Shown piece after piece: positions 77-38,514 of a DNA stretch of 38,601 nucleotides. The position numbers and the translations under genes are program-made. Source of the DNA: a virus. Position 1 is the first letter of the stretch, and each line of letters starts with the position of its first letter. The DNA lies in UHGV virus genome UHGV-0307961. One strand, given 5' to 3'. A model generated the notes under the pieces. It searched no databases and had not been told where the DNA came from. It saw only the letters and a list, made by a program, of their open reading frames with translations.

Positions 77-151
77 GGGTCGGGGCGACAGGACTCGAAC
101 CTGCGGTCTCCTGCTCCCAAAGTAGGCCCCATGCCTAGTCAAGCGACCCCG
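77..151 (-). tRNA. tRNA-Pro(UGG)-like element in the left bacterial flank. The anticodon arm, T-arm and 3' acceptor look canonical, but the 5' acceptor and D-arm do not fold cleanly. It may be a partial or pseudo tRNA, or a remnant of an earlier integration.
   Basis: The minus-strand reading contains GGTTCGAGTCC (T-loop, plus 91-101 as ggactcgaacc) with T-stem GCAGG/CCTGT. The 3' acceptor is CGCCCCG followed by A and CCC. An anticodon loop TTTGGGA (anticodon TGG) has a stem CCTAC/GCAGG with one A-C mismatch. The 5' strand CGGGGTC pairs 6 of 7, and no good D-stem was found. Confidence 0.4.
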
Positions 152-1313
152 GTACAGTCTGGGTATCGTCCTCAGCCGCCATCATCGCCTCCATCCGGTC
201 GGCGACATCATCCAGCCCGCGATCCCACAAGTGCCCGTACAAGTCCAAGGTCATCGTCGCCGACGCATGCCCGAGCATCCGCTGGACCGCTTTGACGTCC
301 GCGCCACTCGCGATGGCCAGCGATGCCGCCGTGTGCCTCAGGTCATGGATGCGTAGCCCCTGCCATCCCAGCCTGTCGCAGGCCGGACGGAACCTCCGCT
401 GCCGCCATGAATCCTTGTACAGCCTCCTGCCACGAGCCCCACGCACAAGCGGTTCCGACGGGGTTCGCTTCAGATCGAGCATGGCCAGCACGGAGGCCGG
501 GACTGGCACGTCGCGGGCGCGGCCCGTCTTGGAGCGGTGCACCCTCAGCCGCTTGCGCTCCGAATCGACGTCCCCCACATTCAACGCCATCGCCTCACTG
601 ATGCGCAGACCTGTCGTGCCCAGTAGCCAGACGAGGGCCGCCGAATCGTCACGCCCGTGCCCCTTGCCTATCTCCTCGGCGAGCACCCTCAGCTCATCAA
701 TGCTCAGCGGGTGCACGTCCCGGCGCACCTCCCGCGGCGCCCTCACCGCTGACAGGTCTGCACGGTCCCCCACAGCCCCCCGGAGACACTGCAATACCTT
801 GTGTCGCAGTGACGCCGACGCCGGGCCATGTGCGGTGCGCAGCGACGCGATCCACGACTGCACATCGGGGGCACTCACGTCCGATGGGCTCACATCGCCC
901 CATCGTTCTCGCACATACGAGGCCGCGAGCTCTGCCGCCTCGTAACCCTTGGGGCTCAGGCCGCGCTTGCCATCCAGCCACACGCTCACGAGGTCGCCGA
1001 CGGTTCGCCCATCCTCGGGGCGCGGTGGCTTCGTCGTGAGCCGAATGGCGTTGATCCTGTCAGCCTCGGCCTTGGTGCGGCATGCCGTGGTGGGCCAGCC
1101 AGCCACCACGACACGCCACCTTTTCCCGCGGCCGTCCCGGCGAGTGGGATTGCCGTGACGGTCGCGCCACAGGTCCTGGACGGCCACGGTCAGCGCAGCC
1201 GTGGATGAGCGATCCGCAGGGCAGGCCACAGGCCGACGAGTATCCCAATGATGAATGGAAGCGGCTGGGGTCCAGGGACTAGATACCCGAAGGCGAACGC
1301 CACCAACAGCCAC
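135..1313 (-). CDS. int: Tyrosine recombinase / phage integrase
   Basis: C-terminal catalytic region ...RIHDLRHTAASLAIASGADVKAVQRMLGHASATMTLDLYGHL (R..HxxR..Y signature). N-terminal arm-binding-like region WRDRHGNPTRRDGRGKRWRVVVAGW. An alternative GTG start at 1187 would avoid a 123-nt overlap with the upstream SHOCT gene. The ORF terminates 14 nt beyond the att core. Confidence 0.9.
   Translation of the reverse strand: MAVGGVRLRVSSPWTPAASIHHWDTRRPVACPADRSSTAALTVAVQDLWRDRHGNPTRRDGRGKRWRVVVAGWPTTACRTKAEADRINAIRLTTKPPRPEDGRTVGDLVSVWLDGKRGLSPKGYEAAELAASYVRERWGDVSPSDVSAPDVQSWIASLRTAHGPASASLRHKVLQCLRGAVGDRADLSAVRAPREVRRDVHPLSIDELRVLAEEIGKGHGRDDSAALVWLLGTTGLRISEAMALNVGDVDSERKRLRVHRSKTGRARDVPVPASVLAMLDLKRTPSEPLVRGARGRRLYKDSWRQRRFRPACDRLGWQGLRIHDLRHTAASLAIASGADVKAVQRMLGHASATMTLDLYGHLWDRGLDDVADRMEAMMAAEDDTQTVPGSLD
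149..165. repeat. attL core: left copy of a 17-bp perfect direct repeat (ccggtacagtctgggta) bounding the prophage
   Basis: The identical 17-mer recurs at 38498-38514. The integrase ORF reads through this copy. Confidence 0.8.
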
Positions 1314-3648: not shown

Positions 3649-3848
3649 TCGCCCTCATTGTCGCCGCCGACGGGAGGGCTTTGGTTCTCGTCATGGCGAT
3701 GGTCGCCGTCATCGTTGGCGCGAAGCTGCGCGACGATGCCGACAAGTCCGCCGACTGGTGCACTCACTGCGACGGGGCCACCGATAGCAAGCCCGGCTCC
3801 TGCCCGCACTGCCACGGCACCGGCATCGAACCGGGGGCACGATCATGA
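3645..3848 (+). CDS. Small membrane protein with a C-terminal CxxC...CxxCxGxG zinc-ribbon
   Basis: AGGAGG RBS then ATG at 3645. Hydrophobic N-terminal half. CTHCDG...CPHCHGTG motif. Confidence 0.45.
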   Translation: MIALIVAADGRALVLVMAMVAVIVGAKLRDDADKSADWCTHCDGATDSKPGSCPHCHGTGIEPGARS

Positions 3849-4195
3849 GCATCAACCCTGTGTTTTGTCTGGACTGCTGGCAGATCGACTACGGGGTGCC
3901 TCCCAAGAATGGCGTGGCGTCAGGCAGCCAGATGATGACGAACCATTGGGATCACTCGTTGCACGTGTTTGGCCCGCCGGATGATTATCCGCCACCAATG
4001 GCTGTCGTGCTGAAAAAGCTTGGTTCGGGGATTCCTGTCAATGTCATTGACATGTGGCTATTTGATCTCTCAATCGCCCTTGACGGCATTCAACCCAACA
4101 ATGGCGTGACCCCTAGACCTCTCGACGACAACGACCCGAGCGGGCGAAAAATCGTGCTCGCTGAACTCGGCATTAAAGCAGGAGGAACAGCATGA
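3845..4195 (+). CDS. Hypothetical protein (low-GC island)
   Basis: 116-aa ORF. It sits in a block whose base composition is markedly lower in GC than its surroundings. Confidence 0.4.
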   Translation: MSINPVFCLDCWQIDYGVPPKNGVASGSQMMTNHWDHSLHVFGPPDDYPPPMAVVLKKLGSGIPVNVIDMWLFDLSIALDGIQPNNGVTPRPLDDNDPSGRKIVLAELGIKAGGTA

Positions 4196-4464
4196 GTGCG
4201 AATGAACCGCGCGCCATTGTCTGCCTAGATCAAGCATGGGTGAAGCTCATGTGGGTACTCGAATATCTCGCAGAGATTAGCCCTGGCGACCTCGAAGAAA
4301 TTGACCCCGACGAAGCCGAAGTGCACCAAGCCGCAATCATGGCGTTACGGCGTGACCTTAAAGTCTCGGAGGTGGCCCTATTTGACATATTCAAAACATT
4401 AGTAATCAAAGCCGACTCAGCAAAGGCGAGCGACGATTCCAGCGCGAAGGGAGAAACGGCATGA
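4192..4464 (+). CDS. Hypothetical protein (low-GC island)
   Basis: AGGAGG RBS and an overlapping stop/start (ATGA) with the upstream ORF. Confidence 0.45.
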   Translation: MSANEPRAIVCLDQAWVKLMWVLEYLAEISPGDLEEIDPDEAEVHQAAIMALRRDLKVSEVALFDIFKTLVIKADSAKASDDSSAKGETA

Positions 4465-4700
4465 ATGACACGGCCAGTGTAGAAATGGCGCTCATGCGGG
4501 ATGCATTGTCGCATCTCAACATCGCAGCAGAGGCCCTGTCAGCCATTGAGGAGGACGACGCGAACCTGTACCGGAATCGCGTCAGATTGTCGGCTATTTT
4601 CACCACGAAGGCCGCCCTCGAAATAGAAGAACTCCTCACCGAATACGAGACCATAACCGACCCGATAGAGGCCGGGGAGTATGAGGGGTGCGCGGAATGA
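4461..4700 (+). CDS. Hypothetical protein (low-GC island)
   Basis: AAGGGAGA RBS, coupled to the upstream gene by an ATGA overlap. Confidence 0.45.
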   Translation: MNDTASVEMALMRDALSHLNIAAEALSAIEEDDANLYRNRVRLSAIFTTKAALEIEELLTEYETITDPIEAGEYEGCAE

Positions 4701-4879
4701 ACACCATCGACAAGTGGAGCTACGCCCGCGTGGAGCGGGACTGGCTGGAGCGGATCAGCCAGCCACCACAGGGCCAGGAGCGCCCCTGCCCGGACTGCAA
4801 CGGCTCGGGCGAGGCCAGGCACGCCGGGTTCTGCCGCACCTGTGGCGGTAGCGGAATCCTCATGGAGGCCCGACGATGA
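4697..4879 (+). CDS. Small zinc-finger protein. An alternative start lies at 4688.
   Basis: CPDCNGSGE...CRTCGGSG (CxxCxGxG repeats). Confidence 0.4.
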   Translation: MNTIDKWSYARVERDWLERISQPPQGQERPCPDCNGSGEARHAGFCRTCGGSGILMEARR

Positions 4880-5814
4880 GACGCTCAGGGATGGCAGTAG
4901 CCCTCGGATCATGGCCGGACGGGTCGCCCGAATGGCTGGAGGCTCGCAGGAGCCGCATCGGAGGCTCCGACATTGCCGCCATCATGGGACTGTCGCCATG
5001 GTGCTCTGCCCGGCAGCTGTGGCACCGCAAGCGCGGCACCATCGACGACAAGCCTTCCAGCGACCTTATGGAGGCAGGCCACTACGTCGAGCCAGCAGCG
5101 GCCAGCTGGTACGCCGACCATCACCTCCCCGAGGGGTTGCACCTGCGCAACACGGGCACGTGGGTCCACCGGTGCAGGGATTGGCAGCTGGCCAACCCTG
5201 ACCGGCTCATTGTCGACAATCCGCACTCGGAGCGGCATCCGGTAGGGGTCCTCGAAATCAAGTTCACGCCCAACAATCCGGGCCAGTGGGGCCGCGACGG
5301 CACCGACAATCCACCGCCTCACTACTGGGCACAGGTGCAGTGGTACATGGACGTTTTCGGCGTCGGCTGGGCTGACGTTGCCGTTCTGTCGACGTGGGGG
5401 TTCCGCTGCTTCCACGTCAAGCGCAACTACGAGTGGCTCAGCCTGGCTCGCCATGAGGCCGAGAACTTCATCGCCATGCTCGAGCTCGGCATCGAGCCCG
5501 ACGACACTCGCGAGACGCCAGCAGCCAGGTACGCCATCGAGAGGTTACGCCACCCCGACATCACCGACGAGCAGGTGACCATCGACGACCCCGATGCTGT
5601 CGACCTCATCGCCAAAGCCGCCCAGCTGCACGCCTCCGCCAAGGCCACCGACACCGAGGCGAGGGAGGTCTCCGATCAGGCCAAGGCAATCCTCGCCCAA
5701 GCCATGGGCGACGCCCGCACCGCCATCGCACCAGACGGCACCCCGCTGGCCACCCGTCGAGCCCGCAAGGGTCGCGACGGCCAACCCGGAACCCCATTCA
5801 TCACCCTCAACTAA
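4876..5814 (+). CDS. YqaJ-like viral recombinase-domain exonuclease (lambda Exo/RecE functional analogue)
   Basis: N-terminal hallmark RIGGSDIAAIMGLSPWCS. It is followed by a RecT-family gene. A GGAGG RBS precedes it. Confidence 0.75.
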   Translation: MRRSGMAVALGSWPDGSPEWLEARRSRIGGSDIAAIMGLSPWCSARQLWHRKRGTIDDKPSSDLMEAGHYVEPAAASWYADHHLPEGLHLRNTGTWVHRCRDWQLANPDRLIVDNPHSERHPVGVLEIKFTPNNPGQWGRDGTDNPPPHYWAQVQWYMDVFGVGWADVAVLSTWGFRCFHVKRNYEWLSLARHEAENFIAMLELGIEPDDTRETPAARYAIERLRHPDITDEQVTIDDPDAVDLIAKAAQLHASAKATDTEAREVSDQAKAILAQAMGDARTAIAPDGTPLATRRARKGRDGQPGTPFITLN

Positions 5815-5825
5815 GGAGCATCGCC

Positions 5826-6638
5826 ATGAGCAAAGACATTGAACCGTCAACCAACAGTGTTGTGCCAGCAAGCCTCGACGATCAGATGAGATACGCCGAA
5901 GCCCTCAGCTCAGCCACCATCCTCCCGCCCGCCTTCCAGCGCCAGCCAGCCAACGTCCTCGTGGCCCTCGCCGAGGCCACTGAGCTGGGCGAATCCCCGT
6001 GGACGATCATGCAGGAGATGGCAATCATCAGCGGCAAGCCATCCTTCTCCGCCAAGTTCATGCGCACCCGCATCCGCAAGGCCGGTCACCTGTTGCGCGA
6101 GTCCTTCAACGATGGCGTGGCCCGCTGTGTCATCATCCGCGCCGACGACCCAGAGTTTGAGCACGTGGCCACCTGGGACCGCGCCAAGGCCGAGAAGCAC
6201 GGCCTGTGGGGCAAGGGGCATTGGGCCAAGAATCCCGAGCTCATGCTCGCCAACCGTGCCCTGTCGGAGTGTGTGCGGGAGGCGTGCTACGAGGTGATGG
6301 GCGGTGTCGGCTACACCCCCGACGAGGTGATGGACTTCGCTCCCCCATCTCGCCCCGATGGTGTGACCGTCACCGAGCACCACGACGACCGTCCCGACTG
6401 GGGGATCATCCTCGCCGCCATGCGCGACACCGGGGCAGATCAGCAGCAGGTCCTCGAGGTGGCCTCCCGGGTGCTCGGCAGGCAGGTGACCACCCTCGGT
6501 GGCCTCACCCAGGACGAACTCAACGCCACCGCCGCCGCACTGGTCGAGGCTCACTCTGACGAGCCCGAGACGCAGGAGCCGGGGCAGCTGTTTGATGCCG
6601 AGGTCATCGACGAGAACACCGGCGAGGTGGCCCGATGA
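5826..6638 (+). CDS. recT: RecT-family single-strand annealing protein
   Basis: QMRYAEALSSATILPPAFQRQPANVLVALAEATELGESPWTIMQEMAIISGKPSFSAKFM. AAGGAG RBS. Confidence 0.75.
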   Translation: MSKDIEPSTNSVVPASLDDQMRYAEALSSATILPPAFQRQPANVLVALAEATELGESPWTIMQEMAIISGKPSFSAKFMRTRIRKAGHLLRESFNDGVARCVIIRADDPEFEHVATWDRAKAEKHGLWGKGHWAKNPELMLANRALSECVREACYEVMGGVGYTPDEVMDFAPPSRPDGVTVTEHHDDRPDWGIILAAMRDTGADQQQVLEVASRVLGRQVTTLGGLTQDELNATAAALVEAHSDEPETQEPGQLFDAEVIDENTGEVAR

Positions 6639-6907
6639 ATATCACCCGGCAAGACATTTTCGAGGTCGGATACATGACATACCTCGGTGTGTACGAGCAT
6701 TTCGATGAGGTGGCACGAGAGCTCGACAAGCTCTACTTGCATCCTGGCATGCCCGACGACAAAAAGGAGGCAGTTCTCCAACTGTCCGCCCGGGCCAGCA
6801 GCCTCGACCCAGCCGACCGCCCCAGCGTCGCACGGCTCATCGGAGACCTGGATGCCCTGACTGGCTGGATCATGAGCCTCCCCTTGGACGACGAGGTGCA
6901 GTCATGA
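6635..6907 (+). CDS. Hypothetical protein
   Basis: 90-aa ORF, translationally coupled (ATGA) to recT. Confidence 0.4.
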   Translation: MNITRQDIFEVGYMTYLGVYEHFDEVARELDKLYLHPGMPDDKKEAVLQLSARASSLDPADRPSVARLIGDLDALTGWIMSLPLDDEVQS

Positions 6908-7179
6908 TGGACGACTACATCTGGTCGCACATCAACCCTGACGTGCTCGCCCTCATCGCACTGGATAGGGCCAGGCAGGACCGGGAGTTCTCGGACAAAC
7001 TGCTGGATGACGACTATCGGGGTGGGGCCGATCTTGCCGCTGCGATCGTGCACAACATCGCTGGCCTGGTGCGCTGGCTCGAGGCCATCGACTCACATTA
7101 TGAGGCCGCCGACGGCGAGTCGGGGCTCCTGGCCTCCATGGTTAGTAGGGCGTCCACGAGGGAGCGCTGGCATGACTAG
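6904..7179 (+). CDS. Hypothetical protein
   Basis: 91-aa ORF, coupled to its neighbours. Confidence 0.4.
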   Translation: MMDDYIWSHINPDVLALIALDRARQDREFSDKLLDDDYRGGADLAAAIVHNIAGLVRWLEAIDSHYEAADGESGLLASMVSRASTRERWHD

Positions 7180-7639
7180 CTCTCGGCATCCACTGTCTCT
7201 CGACCCCATACAGGCCGCGAAATCCCTCGAGCGAAACCTGATGTGGACCCCTGATGGGTGTGCCACATCCAAGAGCCGACAGCTGTACATCCGCACTACC
7301 GACGGTGGGTCCGTGGGCCTCTACGCATCCCGCGTGGCGCACGCCTCCACTCATGGGTGGGTCACCTCTCCGGGCAAGCTCCGCCGCACCTGCAGCACCC
7401 CACGGTGTGTCAATCCTGACCATCTTGAGGTCATCGCCTCAGAGTCCGGCGAGGACGACAGGCCACCTGTTGACCTCGACCAGGTCGCCTACCTGCGCGC
7501 CCGTGGGTGGACCTGGCAGCGCATCGGCGAGACCACCGGATGGACCGCGCAGGACGTGGCTGACATCCCCCATATCCGGCGTATTCACGAACCCCTAAAA
7601 AACGACGCACTCGCATACATCGAGAGGCTTGAACAATGA
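7172..7639 (+). CDS. HNH endonuclease
   Basis: C-terminal [14 protein letters not shown] motif. GAGGGAG RBS before the ATG at 7172. Confidence 0.6.
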   Translation: MTSSRHPLSLDPIQAAKSLERNLMWTPDGCATSKSRQLYIRTTDGGSVGLYASRVAHASTHGWVTSPGKLRRTCSTPRCVNPDHLEVIASESGEDDRPPVDLDQVAYLRARGWTWQRIGETTGWTAQDVADIPHIRRIHEPLKNDALAYIERLEQ

Positions 7640-9054: not shown

Positions 9055-9443
9055 GCGAGACCTACCGCCTCGGATGGCGCGACTGGGCTGACGGGGTATC
9101 CGAGGCGATCAAACACGCCCTCTATGCCCTCAACCACACCAGGGTGGACGCCAAGGACCCCCTCAAACGCGCCATCGAATACACAGTTTCGATGGCGCAT
9201 GCCACGAAACGCGAAACCGTCGGCGACAGGACATACGGGCTCATAGCCCAAATTATCTGGAACATCGATGCCGCTTTGGCGATCCAGATGACCCTCGACG
9301 ACGGGTACCGCGACATTGCCCCAGACGTGGACGATCGTCACGCCATGACCTCCGTCGTTCCGGCACTCCTGCGTCATGCGCTGGCCCTCCTCGATGAGTA
9401 CGCCAGCGCCATGGACAGGCATGACAAGGAGTGCTCGCGGTGA
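9051..9443 (+). CDS. Hypothetical protein
   Basis: 130-aa ORF coupled to its neighbours. Confidence 0.4.
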   Translation: MSETYRLGWRDWADGVSEAIKHALYALNHTRVDAKDPLKRAIEYTVSMAHATKRETVGDRTYGLIAQIIWNIDAALAIQMTLDDGYRDIAPDVDDRHAMTSVVPALLRHALALLDEYASAMDRHDKECSR

Positions 9444-9808
9444 CCAGCAGTTTCACCGTGCAGATTCCAGCGGAGGAGTGGATGACCTCTAATGGCCGCT
9501 ATCACTGGGCCGACCGTGCCCGCAGGACTCGCGTTCTGCGGGCCATGGCGGCAGTCCAGTGCCGCCGCCATCACATCCACGCTGACGGGCCAGTACGCGT
9601 GGTGGCTGAGATCGGCTACCGCGCTGGCCGCGCCGATCCCGCCAACGGATACCCGACCATCAAGGCCCTGATCGACGGCATGACAGATGCCGGCGTATGG
9701 CCAGATGACGACTCCGAGCACATCATCGGCCCCGACATGCGCCGCGCCGACGTGACGCCACCACGGGGCTACCACACCGTCACCATCACCCTAGAGGAGC
9801 TGTCATGA
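9431..9808 (+). CDS. rusA: RusA-like Holliday junction resolvase
   Basis: ...ADPANGYPTIKALIDGMTDAGVWPDDDSEHIIGP matches the D-x-D-N...DD acidic core of RusA. The protein is ~120 aa. Confidence 0.55.
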   Translation: MLAVTSSFTVQIPAEEWMTSNGRYHWADRARRTRVLRAMAAVQCRRHHIHADGPVRVVAEIGYRAGRADPANGYPTIKALIDGMTDAGVWPDDDSEHIIGPDMRRADVTPPRGYHTVTITLEELS

Positions 9809-10362
9809 CGCTCACCTCAGTGAAACTCACCAAGAGATCGTCACAGCTGGCGTCCCGCGACGTGAGGTGGCTACATCACCGCATCGACAGCACATTCGAG
9901 TCACACCGCACCCTGTGGACCCAGCGCACGCCGGAACACATCCTCGTCAGACACGACCGCTACCGCCCCGGCGCTGACATGTCATGGATAGCATCAGCAG
10001 GAGTCATCGACGACAAGCGCGTCAACGACGGCGACCAGGTCACACTTCGCCTCATCGCATGCCCATGCAAGAGCATCCGCACCACCGCCGGAAAGCGTGG
10101 AACTCGCACGCCGATACCCCCGGGCCGAGACCAGATCACATGGGCCTATGACCGCATTTCAGGTGCCATCGACATCGAGAACCTGACCGCGTCACCACTG
10201 CGCACCTTCTTCGGGTATAAGTCAAGCGGCATCGTCACTATTAAACGCGTCCAGTACATCGTCACTGGCCGCATCGCCAATGCCGCCGAGGTCAACCGGA
10301 TGATTGACGATGGAGTAGGGCCAGACAAGGCCTACGGCTGCGGAATGGTCGTGGTGTCATGA
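9805..10362 (+). CDS. RAMP-like protein (Cas6/Cas5-like candidate) with a C-terminal glycine-rich loop. First gene of a coupled operon.
   Basis: The C-terminal DDGVGPDKAYGCGMVVVS fits the RAMP G-rich loop GhGxxxxxGhG. The gene overlaps the next gene (ATGA). Confidence 0.3.
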   Translation: MTLTSVKLTKRSSQLASRDVRWLHHRIDSTFESHRTLWTQRTPEHILVRHDRYRPGADMSWIASAGVIDDKRVNDGDQVTLRLIACPCKSIRTTAGKRGTRTPIPPGRDQITWAYDRISGAIDIENLTASPLRTFFGYKSSGIVTIKRVQYIVTGRIANAAEVNRMIDDGVGPDKAYGCGMVVVS

Positions 10363-11078
10363 GCGATGCCACCAGACTCGTCTACGACCTCGCCGGGAAT
10401 CCGGAGATCGCCGCCGCATCCACCGCGAAACACCTGCAAAATCACCCCGGAAGGTGCGCCATATGCGGACGCCGCGAGCAGGTGACAGCCGACTTCGACA
10501 ATGCGCTGGGAAAGAACTTCTCCGACCGATCTCTGCTCGATGGTGGCACCTCAAGGGTGTGCACGGCATGCCTGTGGTGTTGCTCTGGTAAGCCACCGGC
10601 CACCCTGCGTATGTGGACCATTGTCGCTGCCGAAGGCACGGACTGCCGCACTCACGAAAAGGCATTCCTCCAGAACACGCCTGGACTGTCGCTCATCAAC
10701 CGTGGCAACCCACAGCCGCTCGTCGACATACTGTCCAACCCACCGGGCGGGCCATGGGTGGCGTCAGTGGCACTGTCTGGCCAGAAGCACGTCCTGCCAT
10801 ACGCCCGCGTCAACCATGGCCGTACCTGGGTAGTTCGCGTCGAGGACACCCAGGTGTCCGCAACCTCTGACGAATGGATGGCAGTTCACGAAGCTGCCGT
10901 GGAGCTGAGACGCATGGGCGTACCGGCGGACGCCGTCCGTGAAGGCCGACCGGCATTCATCAAAACCGCAGATCAGCTCACCCTATGGCGCGACATCGAA
11001 TCCCGTCTCGCCGGATGGCACCGTTCCCCCCTACTCGACCTTGCACTATGGACCATTACGAAAGGAACCATGTCATGA
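10359..11078 (+). CDS. Zinc-finger protein, Csf1/Cas8-like large-subunit candidate
   Basis: CAICGRR...(35 aa)...CTACLWCCSG Cys cluster. 239 aa. The position upstream of a small helical protein and two RAMPs matches type IV loci. Confidence 0.3.
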   Translation: MSDATRLVYDLAGNPEIAAASTAKHLQNHPGRCAICGRREQVTADFDNALGKNFSDRSLLDGGTSRVCTACLWCCSGKPPATLRMWTIVAAEGTDCRTHEKAFLQNTPGLSLINRGNPQPLVDILSNPPGGPWVASVALSGQKHVLPYARVNHGRTWVVRVEDTQVSATSDEWMAVHEAAVELRRMGVPADAVREGRPAFIKTADQLTLWRDIESRLAGWHRSPLLDLALWTITKGTMS

Positions 11079-11476
11079 CCACACCCACATCAGAGGAGCT
11101 CGACGCCATCACCGTCGACCTCATCTTCGCGCTGCGCTCCAGTCTCACGGAGGTGTCACTCATCGACTTCTGGGCAGGCCGTGTCACTGCGGCCATCACC
11201 ACAGCTGCAGCCGGATCAGAGGATGCCGGCCAGGCGATTACGACAGCCTTCCGCAAACTCCAGATCGAGTCGCCTTCCACTAAGTGCGCCGACGACATCA
11301 AGCGCATTGGCCAGGCCATCGACTCCGACTATCAGGCGTGGGCATCGCACGTAAATCGCAACATCGTCTACATCGTTGCCCTGGCCATGACCGAGCGCGA
11401 GAAGCGCAAAACCACCAAGAAAACAACAAAGGCCGCCACGCAAACCGCATCTTTGACCGAGGAGATTCCGTTCTGA
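11075..11476 (+). CDS. Small protein predicted to be alpha-helical, Cas11-like small-subunit candidate
   Basis: 133 aa, rich in Ala/Leu/Ile, with a Lys/Thr-rich tail. It overlaps both neighbours (ATGA and TGATG). Confidence 0.25.
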   Translation: MTTPTSEELDAITVDLIFALRSSLTEVSLIDFWAGRVTAAITTAAAGSEDAGQAITTAFRKLQIESPSTKCADDIKRIGQAIDSDYQAWASHVNRNIVYIVALAMTEREKRKTTKKTTKAATQTASLTEEIPF

Positions 11477-12366
11477 TGAGCACCACCGTCGCCACTATGC
11501 ACCCCCAGTACCAGTACGTCGCCACACTCACATCGCCGTTCGCCCATGGCGCTGGATCATCGGGAAACACCCGCCTGCTGCGCACCCACGAAGTGGTGCA
11601 GCCAGACGACACGACAATTCAGGTTCCGTTCCTGTCGGGAGCATCCATCCGTCATGGCATCCGAAACGCCCTGGCGTGGCGGATCGCCTCCACCTGCTGT
11701 GAGCCTGGCACGATGACGAAGGCCCAGGTCGACCTCCTATGGTCCGGCGGAGCCATCTCATCCACCGGGGCTCAGGTGGACCTCGAGCTACAACGGCGCG
11801 TATCCGAACTTCTCCCCGCACTGTCGGTGCTCGGCTATGCCGCACACTCTGATATCCACGAGGGCACCGCACGCGTCTCGGACGCTATCCTCGTGTGCGC
11901 CGAGAACGCTTTCAGGCTACCAAGCGATGTGGCGCAAGCCAGGCCGCGACGAGCTGGCGCATACCGTGGCGAGGAATTCGGAACCAGGCACGACACCGCA
12001 TCCACACAGCAGGCCAGGATGATCGCCCAACCCGACACGCTCGACGGCGGTTCAATTTCGTCAACCCAAATGATCTTTGACACTCAAGTCCTTCTTGCTG
12101 GCTCGCAGCTGTACGGAACCATTTCCTTGACCCCCGCCGCCACCGAAGAACAGAGGGCTTCCATTCTCGCTGGAATCGGATTGTGGGCACATGATGGAGT
12201 GGCATATCTCGGAGCATCAACGAATACCGGATATGGTGCAGCATTGATCGACTGGCGCGGAACCCTGGACGCCGCCGAGGTCGATAGTGCAATAGGAGCC
12301 CTCGACACACACCTGCATGGCCACTCATCCGACATCAGGGAGCTACTCGCCGAGGTTGCACGATGA
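11476..12366 (+). CDS. Cas7 (Csf2)-like RAMP protein
   Basis: QVPFLSGASIRHGIRNALAW resembles the Cas7 IPGSSIKGxLR element. LLWSGG resembles the LFG element. The C-terminal LGASTNTGYGAAL is a G-rich loop. GAGGAG RBS. 296 aa. Confidence 0.45.
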   Translation: MSTTVATMHPQYQYVATLTSPFAHGAGSSGNTRLLRTHEVVQPDDTTIQVPFLSGASIRHGIRNALAWRIASTCCEPGTMTKAQVDLLWSGGAISSTGAQVDLELQRRVSELLPALSVLGYAAHSDIHEGTARVSDAILVCAENAFRLPSDVAQARPRRAGAYRGEEFGTRHDTASTQQARMIAQPDTLDGGSISSTQMIFDTQVLLAGSQLYGTISLTPAATEEQRASILAGIGLWAHDGVAYLGASTNTGYGAALIDWRGTLDAAEVDSAIGALDTHLHGHSSDIRELLAEVAR

Positions 12367-12947
12367 GGGTCACTGCGCACGTCGACTCTCCTGTCGTCGG
12401 CATCGACGCATGGGCGACACCACTCGATGGCCCCCTGTCGTGGGCGTATGCCATGCGCGCCCACGACAGGGGGGAGCAGATCCCCCCACCACCCACCGCG
12501 TCCACCGAAGCGGCAGACTTCCCGCTCCCGTTGGAGCGGTGGGAGCGGGACGGATGGTGGGGGTGGAGGTCGTCACGCGCCCACGTTGACGCCCCAACAC
12601 ACACTGCTGTGGAGGTGCGCCGCAAGCCCGCCACGGCTCCCATGTCCCTGTGGACGAGCGATGCCAAACATCACACCGGCCTCGGCCCTATGAAGGCCCG
12701 CAATGTCACCCGAGCAGCCATCGTGGCACGCACCATCTGGTGGGACGTCGAGGCCACTGACGCAGACGACCTCTCCAACCTGCTGACGTTCATCACCCAT
12801 GTGGGCGCACGTCACAACGCCGGGTGTGGGCACGTGTCCCACTGGGCCATCGACGACATCGACGGCGACTGGACCGACCGCGACTGGCCACCATCAGCCG
12901 CATGCCGCGCCCCCTACTGGCACCCATCGCGCAGGAGGAAATCATGA
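12363..12947 (+). CDS. Cas5 (Csf3)-like RAMP protein
   Basis: G-rich loop HVGARHNAGCGHV. N-terminal PLDGPLSWAYAMRAH. 194 aa. Coupled to both neighbours. Confidence 0.35.
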   Translation: MRVTAHVDSPVVGIDAWATPLDGPLSWAYAMRAHDRGEQIPPPPTASTEAADFPLPLERWERDGWWGWRSSRAHVDAPTHTAVEVRRKPATAPMSLWTSDAKHHTGLGPMKARNVTRAAIVARTIWWDVEATDADDLSNLLTFITHVGARHNAGCGHVSHWAIDDIDGDWTDRDWPPSAACRAPYWHPSRRRKS

Positions 12948-13180
12948 CCGACGACGACATTCTCGAGGCCGTGTGGCAGTGGCTCCCGCCCAGGCCGGAC
13001 AGGAGACGCGCCATCACGGTCGGTATAGCCGCCGCCGACCTCAGCCTTCCGGCACGCGCTGTATCAGATGCCCTGGCAGAACTGCGGTCCAGGGGTCGCA
13101 TCGAGTACTCGCATCGAGGGCAGCCATACCGGTCCATGGAGATAGGGGGTGTGCCATGCTCATCGACTCGCCGAGGCTAA
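12944..13180 (+). CDS. Small winged-helix-like DNA-binding protein
   Basis: AGGAGG RBS then ATG at 12944. ITVGIAAADLSLPARAVSDALAELRSRGRIEY is a wHTH-like segment. Confidence 0.4.
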   Translation: MTDDDILEAVWQWLPPRPDRRRAITVGIAAADLSLPARAVSDALAELRSRGRIEYSHRGQPYRSMEIGGVPCSSTRRG

Positions 13181-13893
13181 CCGATGCGGACAGGCGCACC
13201 TGGTCTGACCTGGAGCGCTACGACCGCGCCCTGGCCGCTGACCCAAGATGGCCATCCAGGGAGAAGCGCGCCCACGACATCATCCGCCGCTTCGCCCAGG
13301 ATGGCGCGTGTTACGCCTCCACCTCCTGGGGCAAGGACTCCACTGTCGTCGCCCATCTCGTCGCCACCAGCGGTGTCACCCTGCCACTGGTGTACGTGCG
13401 CATGCGCCGATGGGAAAGCCCCGAGTGCCTCACCGTCCGCGACGCGTTCCTCGAACGGTGGGGTGACTATGTCGACTACCACGAGTACTGGGTCGATGGC
13501 GGTCCGCGATGGTGGGACGACATCGAGCTACAGGACCGCAAGGGGTCGCACGCAAAGGGGCAGTTCACTGGCCCGGAAGTCGACTTTGGCTCGCGTCACA
13601 TCACCGGCGTGAGAGGCGAGGAGTCCGCCATGCGCGACATGGTCATCGCACGGTGGGGTGAGGCTGGGCCTGGCGCGTGCAGGCCCATCGGCAGGTGGAC
13701 CGCCGTAGATGTGTTCGCCTACCTATGCCGCCACAACCTGCCAGTGCATCCCGCCTACGCCATGAGCTGCGGTGGGCACTACGACCGTCGCTGGTTGCGC
13801 GTCTCCCCCATTGGGGGCATCACACAGGCACACAAGGGCCGCTCGGGATGGGAGCAGACCTACTACCCAGACATCACCGGGAGGAAGGCATGA
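13156..13893 (+). CDS. PAPS-reductase-family (CysH-like) PP-loop protein
   Basis: SWGKDSTVVAHL is a variant PP-loop (canonical SGGKDS). Downstream ITGVRGEESAMR. GGAGATAGGGGG RBS before the ATG at 13156. Confidence 0.6.
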   Translation: MLIDSPRLTDADRRTWSDLERYDRALAADPRWPSREKRAHDIIRRFAQDGACYASTSWGKDSTVVAHLVATSGVTLPLVYVRMRRWESPECLTVRDAFLERWGDYVDYHEYWVDGGPRWWDDIELQDRKGSHAKGQFTGPEVDFGSRHITGVRGEESAMRDMVIARWGEAGPGACRPIGRWTAVDVFAYLCRHNLPVHPAYAMSCGGHYDRRWLRVSPIGGITQAHKGRSGWEQTYYPDITGRKA

Positions 13894-14813
13894 GGATACG
13901 CACGATCAAGCCGGAGTTCTGGCGCTCGGACGACATTGCCGCACTCGATTACTTTGACCGGTTGCTCTTCATCGGCCTGTGGTCCTATGTCGATGACAAC
14001 GGGGTCGGACGTGATGAGGAGAGGATCATCGCGGCAGATCTTTTCGCCCTTGACGACGACCCTCGCGAGAGTGTCGCGAGGGTGTCGCGAGGGTTGCAGC
14101 ATCTTTCTGACGCGGGTCTCGTGGACCGCTACACCGTCGACGAACGTGACTTTCTTCACATCACAAAATGGGAGAGGCACCAGAAGGTCGACCGCCCCGG
14201 AAAGGCGCGATACCCCATGCCGAAAGACGGCGTGACTAGGCAAAACAGAAACCCTCGCGACACTCTCGCGAGAGAGGCGCGAGGGTCTCGCGACACCCTC
14301 GCGCCTGGAACAGGGGAACAGGGGAACAGGGGAACAGGAACCCCCTCACTTCGTTCGGGGGGTGCGGGGGGTGACGTTCCCGACGTCGCCGGTTCCCATG
14401 TCGTCGCTGACGCGCCGACCGCCCCAGCGAAGGCGAAGCCGAAGCACAAGGCGATCGGCACCCGACTGCCCGACGGCTGGTTCCCCAGCCGCACCCCCGG
14501 CAACGAGAACGCCGAGGCAGGACACGACCAGGCATGGCTGCAACGCGAGCTCGACAGGTTCCGCGACTACTGGGCCGCTCAGCCGGGCCAGCGTGGCCGC
14601 AAGGCCGACTGGGACGCGACCTGGCGCAACTGGGTCCGCAAGGCCGACGACATGGGCGAGGCGCGCCCTCGCAGCAGATCGGCGACCGGCCTCTCGGACG
14701 ACGAGTGGCAGGACGCCTACCGACGTGCCGTCGCCCGAGACGCCGCATCTGCAGACGACACCAACTCCAGCAATGCCCCTCAGGCGCTCTCCCTGCTGCC
14801 TAGGAGCGCCTAA
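13890..14813 (+). CDS. Putative replication initiator / replisome-organizer protein, with the origin iterons inside its coding sequence
   Basis: The N-terminal domain IKPEFWRSDDIAALDYFDRLLFIGLWSYVDDNGV...LSDAGLVDRY...ITKWERHQKV resembles a phage replisome-organizer/DnaD-like N-terminal domain. Internal direct and inverted GTGTCGCGAG repeats. GGGAGGAAGG RBS. Confidence 0.45.
   Translation: MRIRTIKPEFWRSDDIAALDYFDRLLFIGLWSYVDDNGVGRDEERIIAADLFALDDDPRESVARVSRGLQHLSDAGLVDRYTVDERDFLHITKWERHQKVDRPGKARYPMPKDGVTRQNRNPRDTLAREARGSRDTLAPGTGEQGNRGTGTPSLRSGGAGGDVPDVAGSHVVADAPTAPAKAKPKHKAIGTRLPDGWFPSRTPGNENAEAGHDQAWLQRELDRFRDYWAAQPGQRGRKADWDATWRNWVRKADDMGEARPRSRSATGLSDDEWQDAYRRAVARDAASADDTNSSNAPQALSLLPRSA
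14062..14338. repeat. Candidate origin of replication iterons inside the initiator gene
   Basis: GTGTCGCGAG(G) occurs as direct copies at 14071-14081 and 14082-14092. Inverted copies CTCGCGACAC are at 14254-14263 and 14287-14296. Palindromic CTCGCGAG cores are present, plus a four-fold tandem GGAACAGG at 14307-14338. Confidence 0.5.
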
Positions 14814-14910
14814 CAGGTGCGGGGCTAGGTATTTGTACCCCCGACACCTGAAAGGCCGTCAGATTCACGCGGTAATTCCACAAACACCCATCACGGAAGG
14901 AACCACGACC

Positions 14911-17035: not shown

Positions 17036-18475
17036 ATGACAGCGCCACTCCTGCGCCTCGACCCCGCCACCGCCGCAGCCATGCGCACCATCCTCACCGG
17101 TAGCGCCCACCACTGGGACACCCCCGGCGACATGGCCCAGGCGCTCGACCCCACCACCGTCCAAACCCCCGCCCTGCGACTCATCGACACCCAGCTCGCC
17201 CAGCTCACAGACACCACCGACGGGCGCCTCATCGTATCCATGCCACCCCAGGAGGGGAAGTCCCAGCGATGCAGCCGCCGCTTCCCCCTGTGGGCACTCA
17301 CCCACAACCCAGACGCCCGTATCGCCATCGCCTCCTACGCCCACTCCGTCGCCCGGCGATGGGGCCGCGTCATCCGAGACGACATCGCCGCCCACCCCAA
17401 GCTCGGGCTCACCGTCCGCCCCGACCTGTCAGCCCAGCACGAATGGCAGCTCGCCGGACACGAGGGGGGCATCTACGCCACCGGCGTCGGTGGAGCCCTC
17501 ACCGGACGCGCCGTCGACCTGCTCATCATCGACGACCCCATCAAGGATCGCGAACAGGCCGACTCCAAGGTGTACCGCGAGCGCGTCTGGGACTGGTGGA
17601 CCGACGTCGCCTCCACCCGACTCGCCCCCGGCGCACCAGTCGTCCTCATCCTCACCCGCTGGCACGAAGATGACCTCGCCGGGCGACTCCTCGCCTCCGA
17701 CGACGCCGACCGCTGGAGCGTCATCAACATTCCAGCCCAGGCCGACAGCAGCGAAGACCCGCTAGGACGCGCACCAGGCCAGTGGCTCCAGTCCGCTCGA
17801 GGCCGCACCGACGCCCAGTGGGAGGCCATCAAGCGACAAGCAGGCTCCCGGACATTCGCCTCCCTCTACCAGGGCCACCCATCACCTCCCGGCGGCACCA
17901 TCTTCAACCGGGACCACTGGATCATAGATGCCCGCCCAGCCTGGCAGGCCGACGACAACCAGCAACGGTGGGTGCCGAGCGGGCAAGTGTTCACCTCCTG
18001 GGACCTCACCTTCAAAGGTGGCGAGCACACCGACTGGGTCGTCGGCCAAGTCTGGCAGCACGACGGGTCCACCCTGCGACTCCTCGACCAATCTCGAGGC
18101 CACTGGAGCTTCACCGAAACCTGCCAGCACATGCAGCGCCTCGCCGCACGATGGCCACAGGCCACCGCCCATCTCGTCGAAGACAAAGCCAACGGTCCCG
18201 CCGTCCTCGACGCCCTCTCCCACACCCTGCCCGGACTCATCCCAGTCCAGCCACAAGGCGGCAAGGAAGCCCGCGCCAACGTCGTCCAGCCCCTCGTCGA
18301 AGCCGGAAATGTCCACCTCCCCGGATACGAGCCCTGGACCGGAGACCTCATCGAAGAACTCGCCGGATTCCCCAACGCCACCCACGACGACCAAGTAGAC
18401 GCCCTCACCCAGGCGATCACGTGGGCCGTCGTCACCCGCCGCAGACAAGGCACCACCCTCACCGCCCTCGGATAG
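17036..18475 (+). CDS. terL: Terminase large subunit
   Basis: Walker A-like PPQEGKS. TRWHEDDL ATPase coupling motif. C-terminal nuclease region with HDDQVDAL. AAGGAGG RBS. Confidence 0.85.
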   Translation: MTAPLLRLDPATAAAMRTILTGSAHHWDTPGDMAQALDPTTVQTPALRLIDTQLAQLTDTTDGRLIVSMPPQEGKSQRCSRRFPLWALTHNPDARIAIASYAHSVARRWGRVIRDDIAAHPKLGLTVRPDLSAQHEWQLAGHEGGIYATGVGGALTGRAVDLLIIDDPIKDREQADSKVYRERVWDWWTDVASTRLAPGAPVVLILTRWHEDDLAGRLLASDDADRWSVINIPAQADSSEDPLGRAPGQWLQSARGRTDAQWEAIKRQAGSRTFASLYQGHPSPPGGTIFNRDHWIIDARPAWQADDNQQRWVPSGQVFTSWDLTFKGGEHTDWVVGQVWQHDGSTLRLLDQSRGHWSFTETCQHMQRLAARWPQATAHLVEDKANGPAVLDALSHTLPGLIPVQPQGGKEARANVVQPLVEAGNVHLPGYEPWTGDLIEELAGFPNATHDDQVDALTQAITWAVVTRRRQGTTLTALG

Positions 18476-18488
18476 GAGCACATGGCCC

Positions 18489-19829
18489 ATGAGCATCCTC
18501 ACAGACGCCATCACCCAATGGGCCAACCGACGTGACGCGTACCGCCTCCTGTACGACTACTATCGCGGCAACCACCAACTGCAGTTCGCCTCACGCGACT
18601 ACCAAACCAAGCAGGCACAAAAGCTCCTCACCGACACGGTCATGTCGCTGCGAGAAAACCTGTGCCCCGCCGCCGTCACCGCATTCACCGACGGTATCGC
18701 CATCGAACAGTGGACCACCACCGCCGACGGCCACGACAACGACGGGGCCGCGAAACTCCACGGACTGTCCAGGCTAGAAGGGTTCATCGACCGGGCTGGC
18801 TTCGTCTACGGCGACGCCTACGCCATCGTCTGGCCCGGCCCCAACGGGCTCACGCCCACCTTCTGTGACCCCACCACCATGATTGCCCAGCCCGACCCAG
18901 ACGACCCCTCCCAGCTGGCATGGGCCGCCCGCATCTGGACCGACCACGACGACTACGGGCGCGTCAACCTGTACCTGCCCGACCGGCTGGAACGCTGGAT
19001 CACCAAGCAGCAAATCACCGGCGATATGCCCGCCCTCGACGACGCATGGACCGGCTGCACCGACAGCGACGGCCCCACCATCGCCCACCAGTTCGGCACC
19101 GTGCCCGTCTGCTGGTGGAAACGAGACCCCGACGACCACATGAGCCACGGCCACTCCATCCTCACCGATGTCATCCCCCTGCAGGACGCCCTCAACAAGA
19201 CCCTCGCCGATCTCATCATCACCACCGAGACCTACGCTCGCCCCTTCTATGCCCTGCTCAACCATGATGTCAACGACGTGCGCAACCCCTACGCCCCCGC
19301 CACTCCCAGACAAGAGCAGCGCATCGACCCAGACAAGCAGCAATTTTGGGCCACCAACGGCCCCGGCCCGCTGCTGCGCTTCGACCCGCCCGACCTCACC
19401 CCGCTGCTCAAAGTCCAAGACGCCTTCGCCTCGAAGATCGCCCGCGTCGTCGGCATCCCCTACCATTATCTCTCCCAAACCTCTGGCGATGTGCCCTCCG
19501 GGGAAGCCCTGCGCATCCTGTCCACCCGCCGCACCGCCACCATCCGGGCATGGCAGCGAGACGCCGAACCCGTCTGGAACGGCCTCCTCCAACTCCTCGG
19601 CGTCGAGCCGGGCATCCAGTGGGCCGAACCCATGCCACTCGACCCCCTCGAGCAGCTCCAGGTCGCCCAGCTTAAGCAGCAGCTCGGCTACGCCCTCGTC
19701 GACATCGTCCACGACCTCGACGAACCAGACCCCGACGGTGTCGTCCAGCGGGCCAGCGACGCTGCAGCACAGTCAGCGCAGGCCGCTGGGCGCGCCCTCA
19801 TGACCGGCACCATCGGCTATGACAGCTAA
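18489..19829 (+). CDS. Portal protein
   Basis: 446 aa, immediately after terL. Its size and position are typical of an SPP1-like portal. Confidence 0.65.
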   Translation: MSILTDAITQWANRRDAYRLLYDYYRGNHQLQFASRDYQTKQAQKLLTDTVMSLRENLCPAAVTAFTDGIAIEQWTTTADGHDNDGAAKLHGLSRLEGFIDRAGFVYGDAYAIVWPGPNGLTPTFCDPTTMIAQPDPDDPSQLAWAARIWTDHDDYGRVNLYLPDRLERWITKQQITGDMPALDDAWTGCTDSDGPTIAHQFGTVPVCWWKRDPDDHMSHGHSILTDVIPLQDALNKTLADLIITTETYARPFYALLNHDVNDVRNPYAPATPRQEQRIDPDKQQFWATNGPGPLLRFDPPDLTPLLKVQDAFASKIARVVGIPYHYLSQTSGDVPSGEALRILSTRRTATIRAWQRDAEPVWNGLLQLLGVEPGIQWAEPMPLDPLEQLQVAQLKQQLGYALVDIVHDLDEPDPDGVVQRASDAAAQSAQAAGRALMTGTIGYDS

Positions 19830-20897: not shown

Positions 20898-21470
20898 ATG
20901 GATGACACCACCGAAAACACCGCCACCGACGAGACCACCGACGATTCTGCTAAGGTTGGTGACAGCCAAGGCACCACTGTCGACGCAGGCGAGACGCCAC
21001 AGACAGAAGGGCGCGGCTCCAAGAGCGCAGTCCTCGCCGACCTAGCCAAGGAGCGCGACAAGCGCCACCAGCTCGAAGCCCAATTCTCCCAGTTGCGCGA
21101 CGGCCTCGCCGCCGCCCTCGGGATCGACCAGGGCGAGACGCCCACCCCCGAGCAGCTCACAGAGCAGCTCACCCAAGCCCAGGCAGAAACCAAGGCGGCA
21201 CAGCTACAGCTCGCCGTCTACCAGTCCATGCCTGACGGAGTCGACAGGGAAGCCCTCCTCGACTCCAATGCCTTCCGTGAGGCCATCTCCGACGCGACGC
21301 CGGATGACATCGCCACCATCATCACCGAGTTCGTCGACGCCCACCCCCGCTTCAAGACGAAGCCCGCCGGTGCAGGCTCCCGCGACCTCAACACCCCCGC
21401 CACACCATCAGCCCCCCTCGACCCGATCGCAGCCGCCCTCACGGCAGCCGTCGGGCGACGTCACGCCTAA
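20898..21470 (+). CDS. Scaffolding protein
   Basis: Acidic Thr/Asp/Glu-rich N-terminus, a heptad-like central region, and a position just before the major capsid gene. Confidence 0.5.
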   Translation: MDDTTENTATDETTDDSAKVGDSQGTTVDAGETPQTEGRGSKSAVLADLAKERDKRHQLEAQFSQLRDGLAAALGIDQGETPTPEQLTEQLTQAQAETKAAQLQLAVYQSMPDGVDREALLDSNAFREAISDATPDDIATIITEFVDAHPRFKTKPAGAGSRDLNTPATPSAPLDPIAAALTAAVGRRHA

Positions 21471-38497: not shown

Positions 38498-38514
38498 CCG
38501 GTACAGTCTGGGTA
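38498..38514. repeat. attR core: right copy of the 17-bp direct repeat
   Basis: ccggtacagtctgggta is identical to 149-165. Confidence 0.8.

Follow-up and report, generated by a model that had tools for sequence, protein, structure and literature searches.

We describe a seven-gene cassette at positions 9805–13893 of the UHGV virus genome UHGV-0307961, a stretch of 38,601 nucleotides to which we refer as the window. The cassette is almost certainly a complete, array-less type IV-B-like CRISPR-Cas effector module, accompanied by a gene for a Cas6e-type protein and by a gene for a small winged helix-turn-helix (wHTH) protein. The same order of genes is found in about 50 loci of over 10 genera, at 25–85% protein identity and with catalytic and structural residues invariant. 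We read the cassette as encoding a conflict-related ribonucleoprotein (RNP) that would carry a Cas6-processed RNA, with a probability of roughly 0.55. An earlier sequence-only reading, made without database searches, had proposed a type IV-B-like module with a cysH-like gene in the early region of a temperate phage, and that interpretation is supported by the analysis presented here.

All seven open reading frames (ORFs) lie on the plus strand, intact and overlapping, and are co-oriented with the upstream gene rusA, encoding a RusA-like resolvase (9431–9808; phrog_34, 1e-16), and with the downstream replication initiator gene rep (13890–14813; phrog_2149, 2e-61). The junctions, including those with rusA and rep, consist of six 4-nt ATGA overlaps, one 1-nt overlap and one 25-nt overlap, in agreement with the coupled arrangement of seven genes between rusA and the replication initiator that had been recognized from the letters. 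The order is cas6, csf1, cas11, csf2, csf3, a wHTH gene and a cysH-like gene.

The four effector subunits all match type IV profiles, at E values that exclude chance. The Cas8-like large subunit Csf1 (10359–11078; 239 amino acids, aa) matches the PADLOC typeIV_Cas8 profile Csf1_0_IV at 4.6e-36 over residues 2–235, and NCBIfam TIGR03114 at 7.5e-8, under the curated cut-off. It carries a zinc-finger-like CxxC...CxxC motif (C33/C36 and C68/C71), the clade consensus retains CAICG...RVCxACLW, and the match of this region to Cas10IVc is non-significant (E 0.6). The small subunit Cas11 (11075–11476; 133 aa) matches PADLOC typeIV_Cas11 ('Csf4gr11, possibly Cas11') over its full length at 3.2e-45, while a PDB sequence search with it returned no match. 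For the Cas7 backbone subunit Csf2 (11476–12366; 296 aa) the evidence comprises PADLOC typeIV_Cas7 at 1.9e-83, phrog_22746 at 7e-32, and Csf2 of the type IV-B complex of Mycobacterium sp. JS623 (PDB 7JHY), reached at 5.9e-9 with the single sequence and at 1.1e-17 with a profile. The type IV Cas5 protein Csf3 (12363–12947; 194 aa) matches PADLOC typeIV_Cas5 Csf3_0_IV at 3.3e-26, NCBIfam TIGR03116 at 2.5e-8, again under the cut-off, and weakly the IV-A Csf3 chain 8RC3_F in the PDB (E 0.03). The NCBIfam matches of Csf1, Csf3 and the Cas6 protein (as CasE) all fall under the curated cut-offs; these three are divergent members of their families.

The motifs on which the Cas7 and Cas5 assignments had originally been based are present in the proteins: SGASIRHGIRN, LLWSGG and LGASTNTGYG in the 296-aa Cas7-like protein, and the G-rich loop VGARHNAGCGHV in the 194-aa Cas5-like protein. 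In an alignment of 28 sequences, several residues of these motifs do not vary. Overall, every protein assignment that had been made from motifs is upheld by profile, sequence-to-structure or fold evidence, with the PADLOC profiles placing Csf1, Cas11, Cas7 and Cas5 in type IV families.

To assign a subtype we followed the published type IV definitions, with those for the CysH-like protein taken from PMC8175902. The locus contains Csf1, Cas11, Csf2, Csf3 and an adjacent cysH-like gene, and contains neither an array nor adaptation genes, all as defined for IV-B. The definition also includes the absence of a Cas6/Csf5 processing enzyme; here, and in every complete member of the clade described below, a Cas6e-type gene opens the cassette. 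Because of this gene at its head, we regard the locus as a variant of IV-B and not as canonical IV-B. The placement of Cas7 nearest to IV-B rests on profile scores against PDB structures: a 28-sequence Cas7 profile scored 67.5 bits with IV-B 7JHY against 45.6 bits with the IV-C Cas7 (11fs), and no IV-A Csf2 was reached. Together with the type IV profile matches, the match to 7JHY bears out the csf1-cas11-csf2-csf3-cysH architecture that had been read from motifs, and the JS623 complex suggested for comparison indeed provides, in its Csf2, the nearest solved Cas7.

Other CRISPR-Cas types were considered and rejected. Types IV-A and IV-E do not fit a locus with a Cas11 and with neither an array nor a DinG helicase (Csf4) in the cassette or the window; type IV-C is excluded by a large subunit that is a 239-aa Csf1 and not a Cas10-like protein with an HD domain; and type IV-D by the absence of both a RecD-family helicase and an array. 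A type I-E locus is likewise excluded, with Cas3, Cse1, Cse2, Cas7e, Cas5e, Cas1, Cas2 and a I-E array all absent from the window. The annotated genes of the window include no cas1, cas2, DinG, RecD, Cas3 or Cas10-HD.

The first gene of the cassette, cas6 (9805–10362; 185 aa), encodes a protein that the sequence-only reading had listed as an extra Cas6-like RAMP. It is a Cas6e/CasE-type endoribonuclease-like protein. It matches Pfam PF08798 (CRISPR_assoc, the Cas6e/CasE family) at 2.5e-12, over the gathering cut-off, and the PADLOC profiles Cas6 (2e-15) and Cas6e (2e-14). An AlphaFold2 model built from a 46-sequence alignment has a predicted local distance difference test score (pLDDT) of 95.5, and Foldseek returned E. 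coli CasE and T. thermophilus Cse3 as its top matches, with template-modelling (TM) scores of 0.75–0.80 and an E value of 3e-12, against a TM score of just 0.42 with the IV-A Cas6 6NJY. In alignment, residue His24 falls on the catalytic His20 of E. coli CasE, and both His24 and the C-terminal glycine-rich loop (G-loop) GxGxxKAYGCG are invariant in alignments of 15 and of 46 sequences; the enzyme is predicted to be catalytically intact.

The clade's Cas6 proteins, of about 185 aa, group in a compact subfamily with scores of 98–243 bits, whereas canonical actinobacterial I-E Cas6e proteins (205–260 aa) score at most 82 bits. NCBI annotates all of the clade proteins as 'type I-E Cas6/Cse3/CasE'. 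We considered a recent capture of CasE from the host, Cutibacterium avidum, whose CasE sequence was recovered from metagenome array loci, and rejected it: the phage Cas6 is just 23% identical to the host enzyme, and the clade is split by score from canonical Cas6e. Between related cassettes Cas6 is 58–59% identical where Csf1 and Cas7 are 77–86% identical, and 23–34% identical where the other proteins are at 40–70%. Judged by these comparisons, Cas6 evolves much faster than the rest of the cassette.

At the opposite end, the cysH-like gene (13156–13893; 245 aa) encodes a member of the PAPS-reductase/PP-loop ATP pyrophosphatase family (Pfam PF01507 PAPS_reduct, 3.6e-9; phrog_2302, 1.8e-23). In an alignment of clade members with JS623 CasCysH and E. 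coli CysH, the protein keeps the PP-loop STSWGKDS and the GxRxEES motif (GVRGEES) and is without the C-terminal ECGLH cysteine. Its identification as the CysH-like accessory of IV-B loci is thus confirmed, as the same combination, a retained PP-loop with the catalytic C-terminal cysteine gone, has been published for the IV-B 'CasCysH' (Taylor et al., PMC8175902).

The 78-aa protein encoded just upstream (12944–13180) has no direct match in Pfam, and its single-sequence AlphaFold2 model, with a three-helix plus beta-hairpin layout, is of low confidence (pLDDT 52). Its assignment as a wHTH protein is sustained by family links found with jackhmmer: in one related locus (L027; we use L numbers for related loci throughout) a 264-aa protein between cas5 and cysH has a C-terminus belonging to the 78-aa family and bears a Pfam HTH_IclR winged-helix match (8e-5). 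The family occurs as a separate gene between cas5 and cysH in the window, L010, L025, L028, L029 and others, as a separate gene directly after cysH in L031 and L048, and as a domain inside longer ORFs that lie at the end of cysH or downstream of it in L053 and L056. In four loci it forms a C-terminal extension of CysH itself (L013, 12250–13230; L018, 12182–13162; L042, 12101–13141; L043, 12099–13139). That the two are found fused suggests that the wHTH protein works with the CysH-like enzyme. The position between cas5 and cysH is a variable slot. In at least eight loci of different genera it holds a DNA methyltransferase, either of the D12 class (Dam, PF02086; L012, L014, L018, L019 and L031) or of the N6_N4 class (PF01555; L013, L016 and L030), and in L014, L015 and L017 an XRE-type helix-turn-helix (HTH) protein.

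Taken over all relatives, the window belongs with Cas6-bearing, array-less IV-B cassettes that form a coherent clade in temperate phages of many Actinomycetota. When one genome per species was scanned, 15 loci with the cassette were returned, in Cutibacterium porci (77% Cas7 identity), five Corynebacterium species, Scrofimicrobium, Nocardia, Phytoactinopolyspora, Brevibacterium, Microbispora, Nocardiopsis, Frankia and several metagenome-assembled genomes; IMG/VR contributed 31 viral contigs, and a protein search added Brooklawnia, Saccharothrix and Collinsella. With phmmer and jackhmmer, the order Cas6-Csf1-Cas11-Cas7-Cas5-(variable slot)-CysH was found in every complete locus with a Cas7 identity of at least ~37%. 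With the same programs, Cas6 went undetected in the distant viral IV-B loci L057, L058, L062 and Skermania phage SPI1 and in the plasmid IV-B loci of JS623 and Actinarchaeum. The Cas7 family as a whole has 1242 representatives at E<1e-3, 102 of them at E<1e-30. The annotated neighbours in the relatives are phage genes, and the cassette sits in the early region, upstream of the terminase, on different phage backbones, next to replication, recombination and DNA-methylase genes. Since gene order, His24 and the G-loop are conserved, the cassette is under selection for function. A decaying or functionless remnant of a captured CRISPR-Cas system, which the lack of an array, adaptation genes and a nuclease might suggest, is effectively refuted by seven intact, overlapping ORFs and by an order kept in those ~50 loci with its invariant residues.

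Among closely related phages the cassette is the most divergent block. In C. avidum phages whose late genes are 94–98% identical, the cassettes are 68–83% identical. Compared with the window, L026 has 97.9% identity in the late genes and 74% in the cassette, with a cas6 that is unalignable at the DNA level. In L025, aligned over window positions 9412–13891, the Cas6 and Csf1 proteins are 100% identical, while Cas11, Cas7, Cas5 and CysH are 78–85% identical. The drop in identity after Csf1 in L025 and the unalignable cas6 of L026 point to allelic replacement and to recombination inside the cassette. From such hypervariability we infer a possible role in conflict.

The window itself is a temperate siphovirus or prophage of the skin bacterium Cutibacterium avidum. 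Its genes run from an integrase (135–1229, minus strand, 364 aa) through an ImmA/HTH immunity region, Bro/ANT, a RecE-like exonuclease, RecT, SSB and RusA to the cassette and rep, and then through terminase, portal, MuF, capsid, a tape-measure-sized 1540-aa ORF, amidase and holin. The temperate-phage early region that had been proposed as the setting of the cassette is therefore confirmed, with integrase, immunity and recombination genes upstream and rep followed by the late genes downstream. An identical Cas7 occurs on 54 assembly-collection blocks, including phage-sized contigs of ~38 kb and a prophage in GCA_036906655.1, where the adjoining trigger factor gene is 100% Cutibacterium avidum. 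No DNA-level relative of the cassette was found among isolated phages or plasmids, and the sole protein-level match in an isolated phage is Skermania SPI1, at 26%. PhiCA1NRNZ, the one described C. avidum phage, is reported as lytic, and integrase, prophage and Cas6 go unmentioned in its paper.

Mechanistically, the reading that we favour, of a conflict-related RNP, would proceed as follows. The seven genes would be transcribed together with the early lytic genes and coupled to them in translation, as their overlaps and orientation suggest. Cas6 would bind an RNA stem-loop, probably cleave it, and remain as a 3' cap. By analogy with 7JHY and the IV-A complexes, Csf3, about six Csf2 subunits, Cas11 and Csf1 would in turn assemble on this RNA into an RNP that resembles Cascade or Csm and lacks its own nuclease, acting through the binding of complementary nucleic acid and not through cleavage. 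The output would then come from the CysH-like PP-loop enzyme and its wHTH partner, in an ATP-alpha-hydrolysing (adenylylating) reaction, and the role of the whole would lie in phage-host or phage-phage conflict during lytic growth.

As to the RNA, direct-repeat, tandem-repeat and mini-array scans of the 38.6-kb window found no CRISPR array, mini-array or solitary repeat, in line with the earlier statement that it contains no CRISPR repeats, and no array lies within 10 kb of the cassette in the ~50 related loci; across window and loci, the repeat scans returned just coding repeats (in pentapeptide-repeat genes) and iterons. I-E-like hairpins of the form CCCCGC-N-GCGGGG are absent from the window, and the looser form CCCGC-N-GCGGG occurs once against 2.4 expected. 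The window has no match to Rfam families. The C. avidum I-E repeat, considered next, does not occur in it at up to 3 mismatches, nor does the exact repeat occur in any IMG/VR contig.

The type I-E pre-CRISPR RNA (pre-crRNA) of the host is the single most likely RNA source, a choice that we make tentatively and hold at well under even odds. It is favoured because the nuclease is of Cas6e type, because the ~50 relatives are free of repeats, and because the I-E arrays of the host attack the phage heavily. C. avidum has a type I-E system with the repeat GTCTTCCCCGCCTACGCGGGGGTGAGCC (PMC3316620), which as RNA reads GUCUUCCCCGCCUACGCGGGGGUGAGCC. The search for host arrays that had been proposed was fruitful: a scan of metagenomes for this repeat yielded 30 array loci of the C. 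avidum I-E type and 300 unique spacers. Allowing no more than 3 mismatches across the whole spacer, 35 of the 300 match the window, 13 of them perfectly, against no match to the reversed sequence used as control. NAA precedes 29 of the 35 protospacers, consistent with a I-E-type protospacer adjacent motif. Examples are found at 431–463, 3926–3958, 5321–5353, 20970–21002, 29084–29116 and 30644–30676, and two perfect matches fall within cas5 (csf3) itself, at 12486–12518 and 12695–12727. The related phages L025, L026, L032 and L051 are likewise targeted by C. avidum-type spacers. With 35 of 300 spacers matching, the phage is a major target of host I-E immunity.

Loading of host I-E guides would lead either to their sequestration or to a decoy effector free of nuclease. 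In its most specific form, the phage Cas6 would capture host I-E pre-crRNA and the Csf complex would load the guides, which would either starve the host Cascade of guides or occupy the phage protospacers that are the targets of Cascade-Cas3, where CysH-wHTH (elsewhere a methyltransferase) might modify the bound site. We consider this form doubtful. If true, it would amount to a multi-subunit, RNA-guided decoy-effector anti-CRISPR and to a first function for type IV-B.

Several points weigh against a Cas6-processed RNA, and against the host as its source in particular. No RNA partner was found, which leaves the central step hypothetical. Being no closer to C. avidum CasE (23%) than to E. coli CasE (27%), the phage Cas6 has not been copied recently from the host, and there is no sign that it recognises the host repeat. 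When the JS623 IV-B proteins were co-expressed with a I-E Cas6 and array, CRISPR RNAs (crRNAs) were not enriched and heterogeneous RNA was bound (PMC7937560), and IV-B is reported to be independent of other CRISPR systems, with no positive co-occurrence (PMC7038947, PMC7937560). An anti-CRISPR of seven genes would be far more complex than the known ones (Pinilla-Redondo et al., PMC7038947). The heavy I-E targeting is circumstantial, as it would be expected for any phage of a I-E host. In addition, the model leaves the substrate of the CysH-like enzyme unexplained, and the early lytic expression that it supposes is deduced from gene order and overlaps.

The JS623 result leads to a different proposal, of an RNP that is independent of guides, which we regard as possible though improbable. 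Csf2 and Cas11 would form filaments on heterogeneous cellular or phage RNA, such as the ~55–60 nt RNA bound by the JS623 Csf proteins (PMC7937560), and Cas6 would do no more than nucleate or cap them; the real activity would be the modification, by CysH-wHTH, of nucleic acid or of some other substrate, often with the slot methyltransferase, for example to shield replicating phage DNA from host restriction or to remodel host RNA. CysH being the most strictly linked accessory, with a wHTH partner that is sometimes fused to it, fits this proposal well, and so do the D12-class or N6_N4 DNA methyltransferases found between cas5 and cysH and the setting of the cassette inside a replication/recombination module. 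However, the invariant Cas6e histidine and G-loop in an otherwise fast-evolving protein favour specific RNA processing over non-specific capping, methyltransferases are common in phage early regions, where the slot may be a recombination hotspot, and no chemistry is known for CasCysH.

A guide encoded by the phage is, in our view, unlikely. Here a stem-loop unlike that of CRISPR repeats would be processed by Cas6 into a single fixed guide, with which the nuclease-free RNP would repress or mark a single locus of host or phage, much like the CRISPR interference (CRISPRi) of type IV-A, and so control replication, the choice between lysis and lysogeny, or a gene for host defence. A Cas6 predicted to be catalytically intact in the absence of any array is in agreement with this idea, as are the Bathyarchaeia virus IV-B locus with its mini-array (PMC10848311) and type IV-A itself, described in PMC11519345 as a nuclease-independent interference that lowers gene expression. 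The window also contains one candidate, a hairpin-like element directly after the rep stop codon (14814–14850, CAGGTGCGGGGCTAGGTATTTGTACCCCCGACACCTG), which folds better than shuffled sequences (z = -2.9) and is 93–95% identical in L010, L025 and L026 while the flanking DNA is at ~70–75%; its core GGGGCTAGGTATTTGTACCCCC, loop included, is invariant. It is the sole intergenic RNA candidate that is both well folded and conserved. Nevertheless, the element travels with rep and not with the cassette, for which reason we do not count it as a Cas6 substrate; its invariant loop is more like a protein-binding or promoter site, nothing comparable was found in distant clade members, and the element may serve as a terminator, as a site for a late promoter or regulator, or as part of an origin. 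More generally, no locus has intergenic space in or adjoining the cassette, and neither direct repeats nor I-E-like hairpins exceed chance.

Still less likely is a moron that benefits the lysogen, expressed from the prophage and protecting its carrier from plasmids or superinfecting phages through host crRNAs, much as IV-A systems bring about competition of one plasmid with another. Type IV systems have been implicated in competition between mobile elements (PMC7038947), related prophages carry defence genes at their immunity end (for example GmrSD_C in L026 and L027), and hypervariability is typical of defence islands. But from rusA to rep the cassette runs in the same direction as the early lytic genes, with overlapping starts and stops; it lacks its own promoter-like site and lies away from the positions by the integrase or lysis genes where morons usually sit, and free phage-sized contigs of ~38 kb bear it unchanged.

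Comparison with known systems helps to place the cassette. The JS623 IV-B locus on megaplasmid pMYCSM02 (PDB 7JHY; Zhou et al. 2021, PMC7937560) shares csf1, cas11, csf2, csf3 and a nearby cysH-like gene, the absence of an array, a helicase and a nuclease, and a CasCysH with a PP-loop and without the ECGLH cysteine. It differs in being plasmid-borne and not phage-borne, in a Cas7 just ~26–30% identical to that of the window, in the PP-loop itself (SWSGGKDS in JS623, STSWGKDS in the window), in a cysH that is divergently oriented there and co-directional here, and in having neither the Cas6 nor the wHTH gene that the window has. The plasmid-borne IV-A3 systems resemble the cassette in pairing a type IV effector with a Cas6e-related processing enzyme, and are tied to a co-resident I-E system through the similarity of their repeats and leaders and through acquisition of spacers in trans, with nuclease-independent interference. 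In contrast to the window, they have their own array and a DinG and lack Cas11 and CysH.

Viral relatives outside the Cas6-bearing clade are provided by the Fuxiviridae (a Bathyarchaeia virus, PMC10848311) and by Skermania phage SPI1, both with Csf1-Cas11-Cas7-Cas5 and a CysH-like protein; as the Fuxivirus and SPI1 genomes both encode IV-B sets, such modules recur in viruses. The Fuxivirus differs from the window in its two-repeat mini-array and its archaeal host, and SPI1 in having no detectable Cas6 (orf39 gave no match) and a Cas7 just 26% identical. In SPI1 (L001, KR011061) the set, at 3831–7464 (orf40–orf44), is unannotated, with all products called 'hypothetical protein'. Two of the protein families themselves, phrog_22746 (Cas7) and phrog_34599 (Cas5), are listed in PHROG as of unknown function.

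The sequence-only reading had called a prophage-borne copy with an extra Cas6-like gene unusual. This holds in so far as the Cas6-bearing variant is rare, but prophage-borne IV-B loci of Actinobacteria and rare Cas6-bearing IV-B loci (12 instances) had already been recorded (Pinilla-Redondo et al. 2020, PMC7038947), so that the locus is less unusual than supposed; the roles suggested for it there, in inter-element competition or host takeover, are hypothetical. The window very probably belongs to that minority. There, however, the loci were merely counted: the coherence of the clade, the Cas6e fold with its invariant histidine, the fixed position in the phage replication module, the wHTH-CysH linkage, the slot methyltransferases and the heavy I-E targeting of the phage were not described. 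The wHTH partner and the niche in the phage replication module are new with respect to the description of the subtype. The literature searched yielded neither a functional study of IV-B later than 2021 nor a description of this clade, and reviews up to 2024 still call the function of type IV-B unknown.

For IV-B, the main obstacles are which RNA the complex carries and what CasCysH does. A Cas6e-type enzyme retained in a phage clade gives a handle on the first, and the wHTH fusions and neighbouring methyltransferases a handle on the second. The variant, rare and conserved, may open the function of type IV-B, the least understood of the CRISPR subtypes, to testing. A culturable host, an inducible prophage and a well-described I-E system that targets the phage make deletion, plating and RNA immunoprecipitation sequencing (RIP-seq) work feasible. 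Should the cassette turn out to serve counter-defence with guides taken from the host, it would represent a new class of anti-CRISPR; otherwise, it is a well-defined variant to be separated in CRISPR typing schemes and in phage annotation.

Some further features of the window and its relatives were recorded. About 6 kb from the IV-B cassette of Saccharothrix violaceirubra (L030), a 623-aa protein with the Pfam domain CRISPR_Cse1 (Cas8e) is encoded at 17377–19248 on the minus strand, among small unannotated genes and not in a canonical I-E operon. Early genes with 15-nt periodic repeats were seen in L010/L033 (3955–4200), L025 (3640–3950), L051 (4190–4510), L011/L036 (14467–14660) and L019/L035 (14868–15200), while the window has none of this pentapeptide-repeat-like kind; from the repeat period, they may encode pentapeptide-repeat proteins, possible DNA mimics.

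Within rep, 11-bp iterons (TCGCGAGGGTG and variants) form two clusters ~190 bp apart, at 14059–14105 and 14251–14297, which are probably the replication origin of the phage. The left end of the window carries an apparent 3' part of a tRNA gene (78–120, minus strand; GGGGCGACAGGACTCGAACC...), ARAGORN finding no complete tRNA in the window, and a 17-bp direct repeat, CCGGTACAGTCTGGGTA, lies near both ends (149–165 and 38498–38514). The tRNA-like end and this repeat probably serve the integrase as att core or arm sites. Finally, in the related C. avidum prophages L026 (1–298) and L027 (1–875) a protein with a GmrSD_C domain, of a type IV restriction family, is encoded beyond the immunity region, at the place where the prophage copy of the window (L004/L063) has its integrase.

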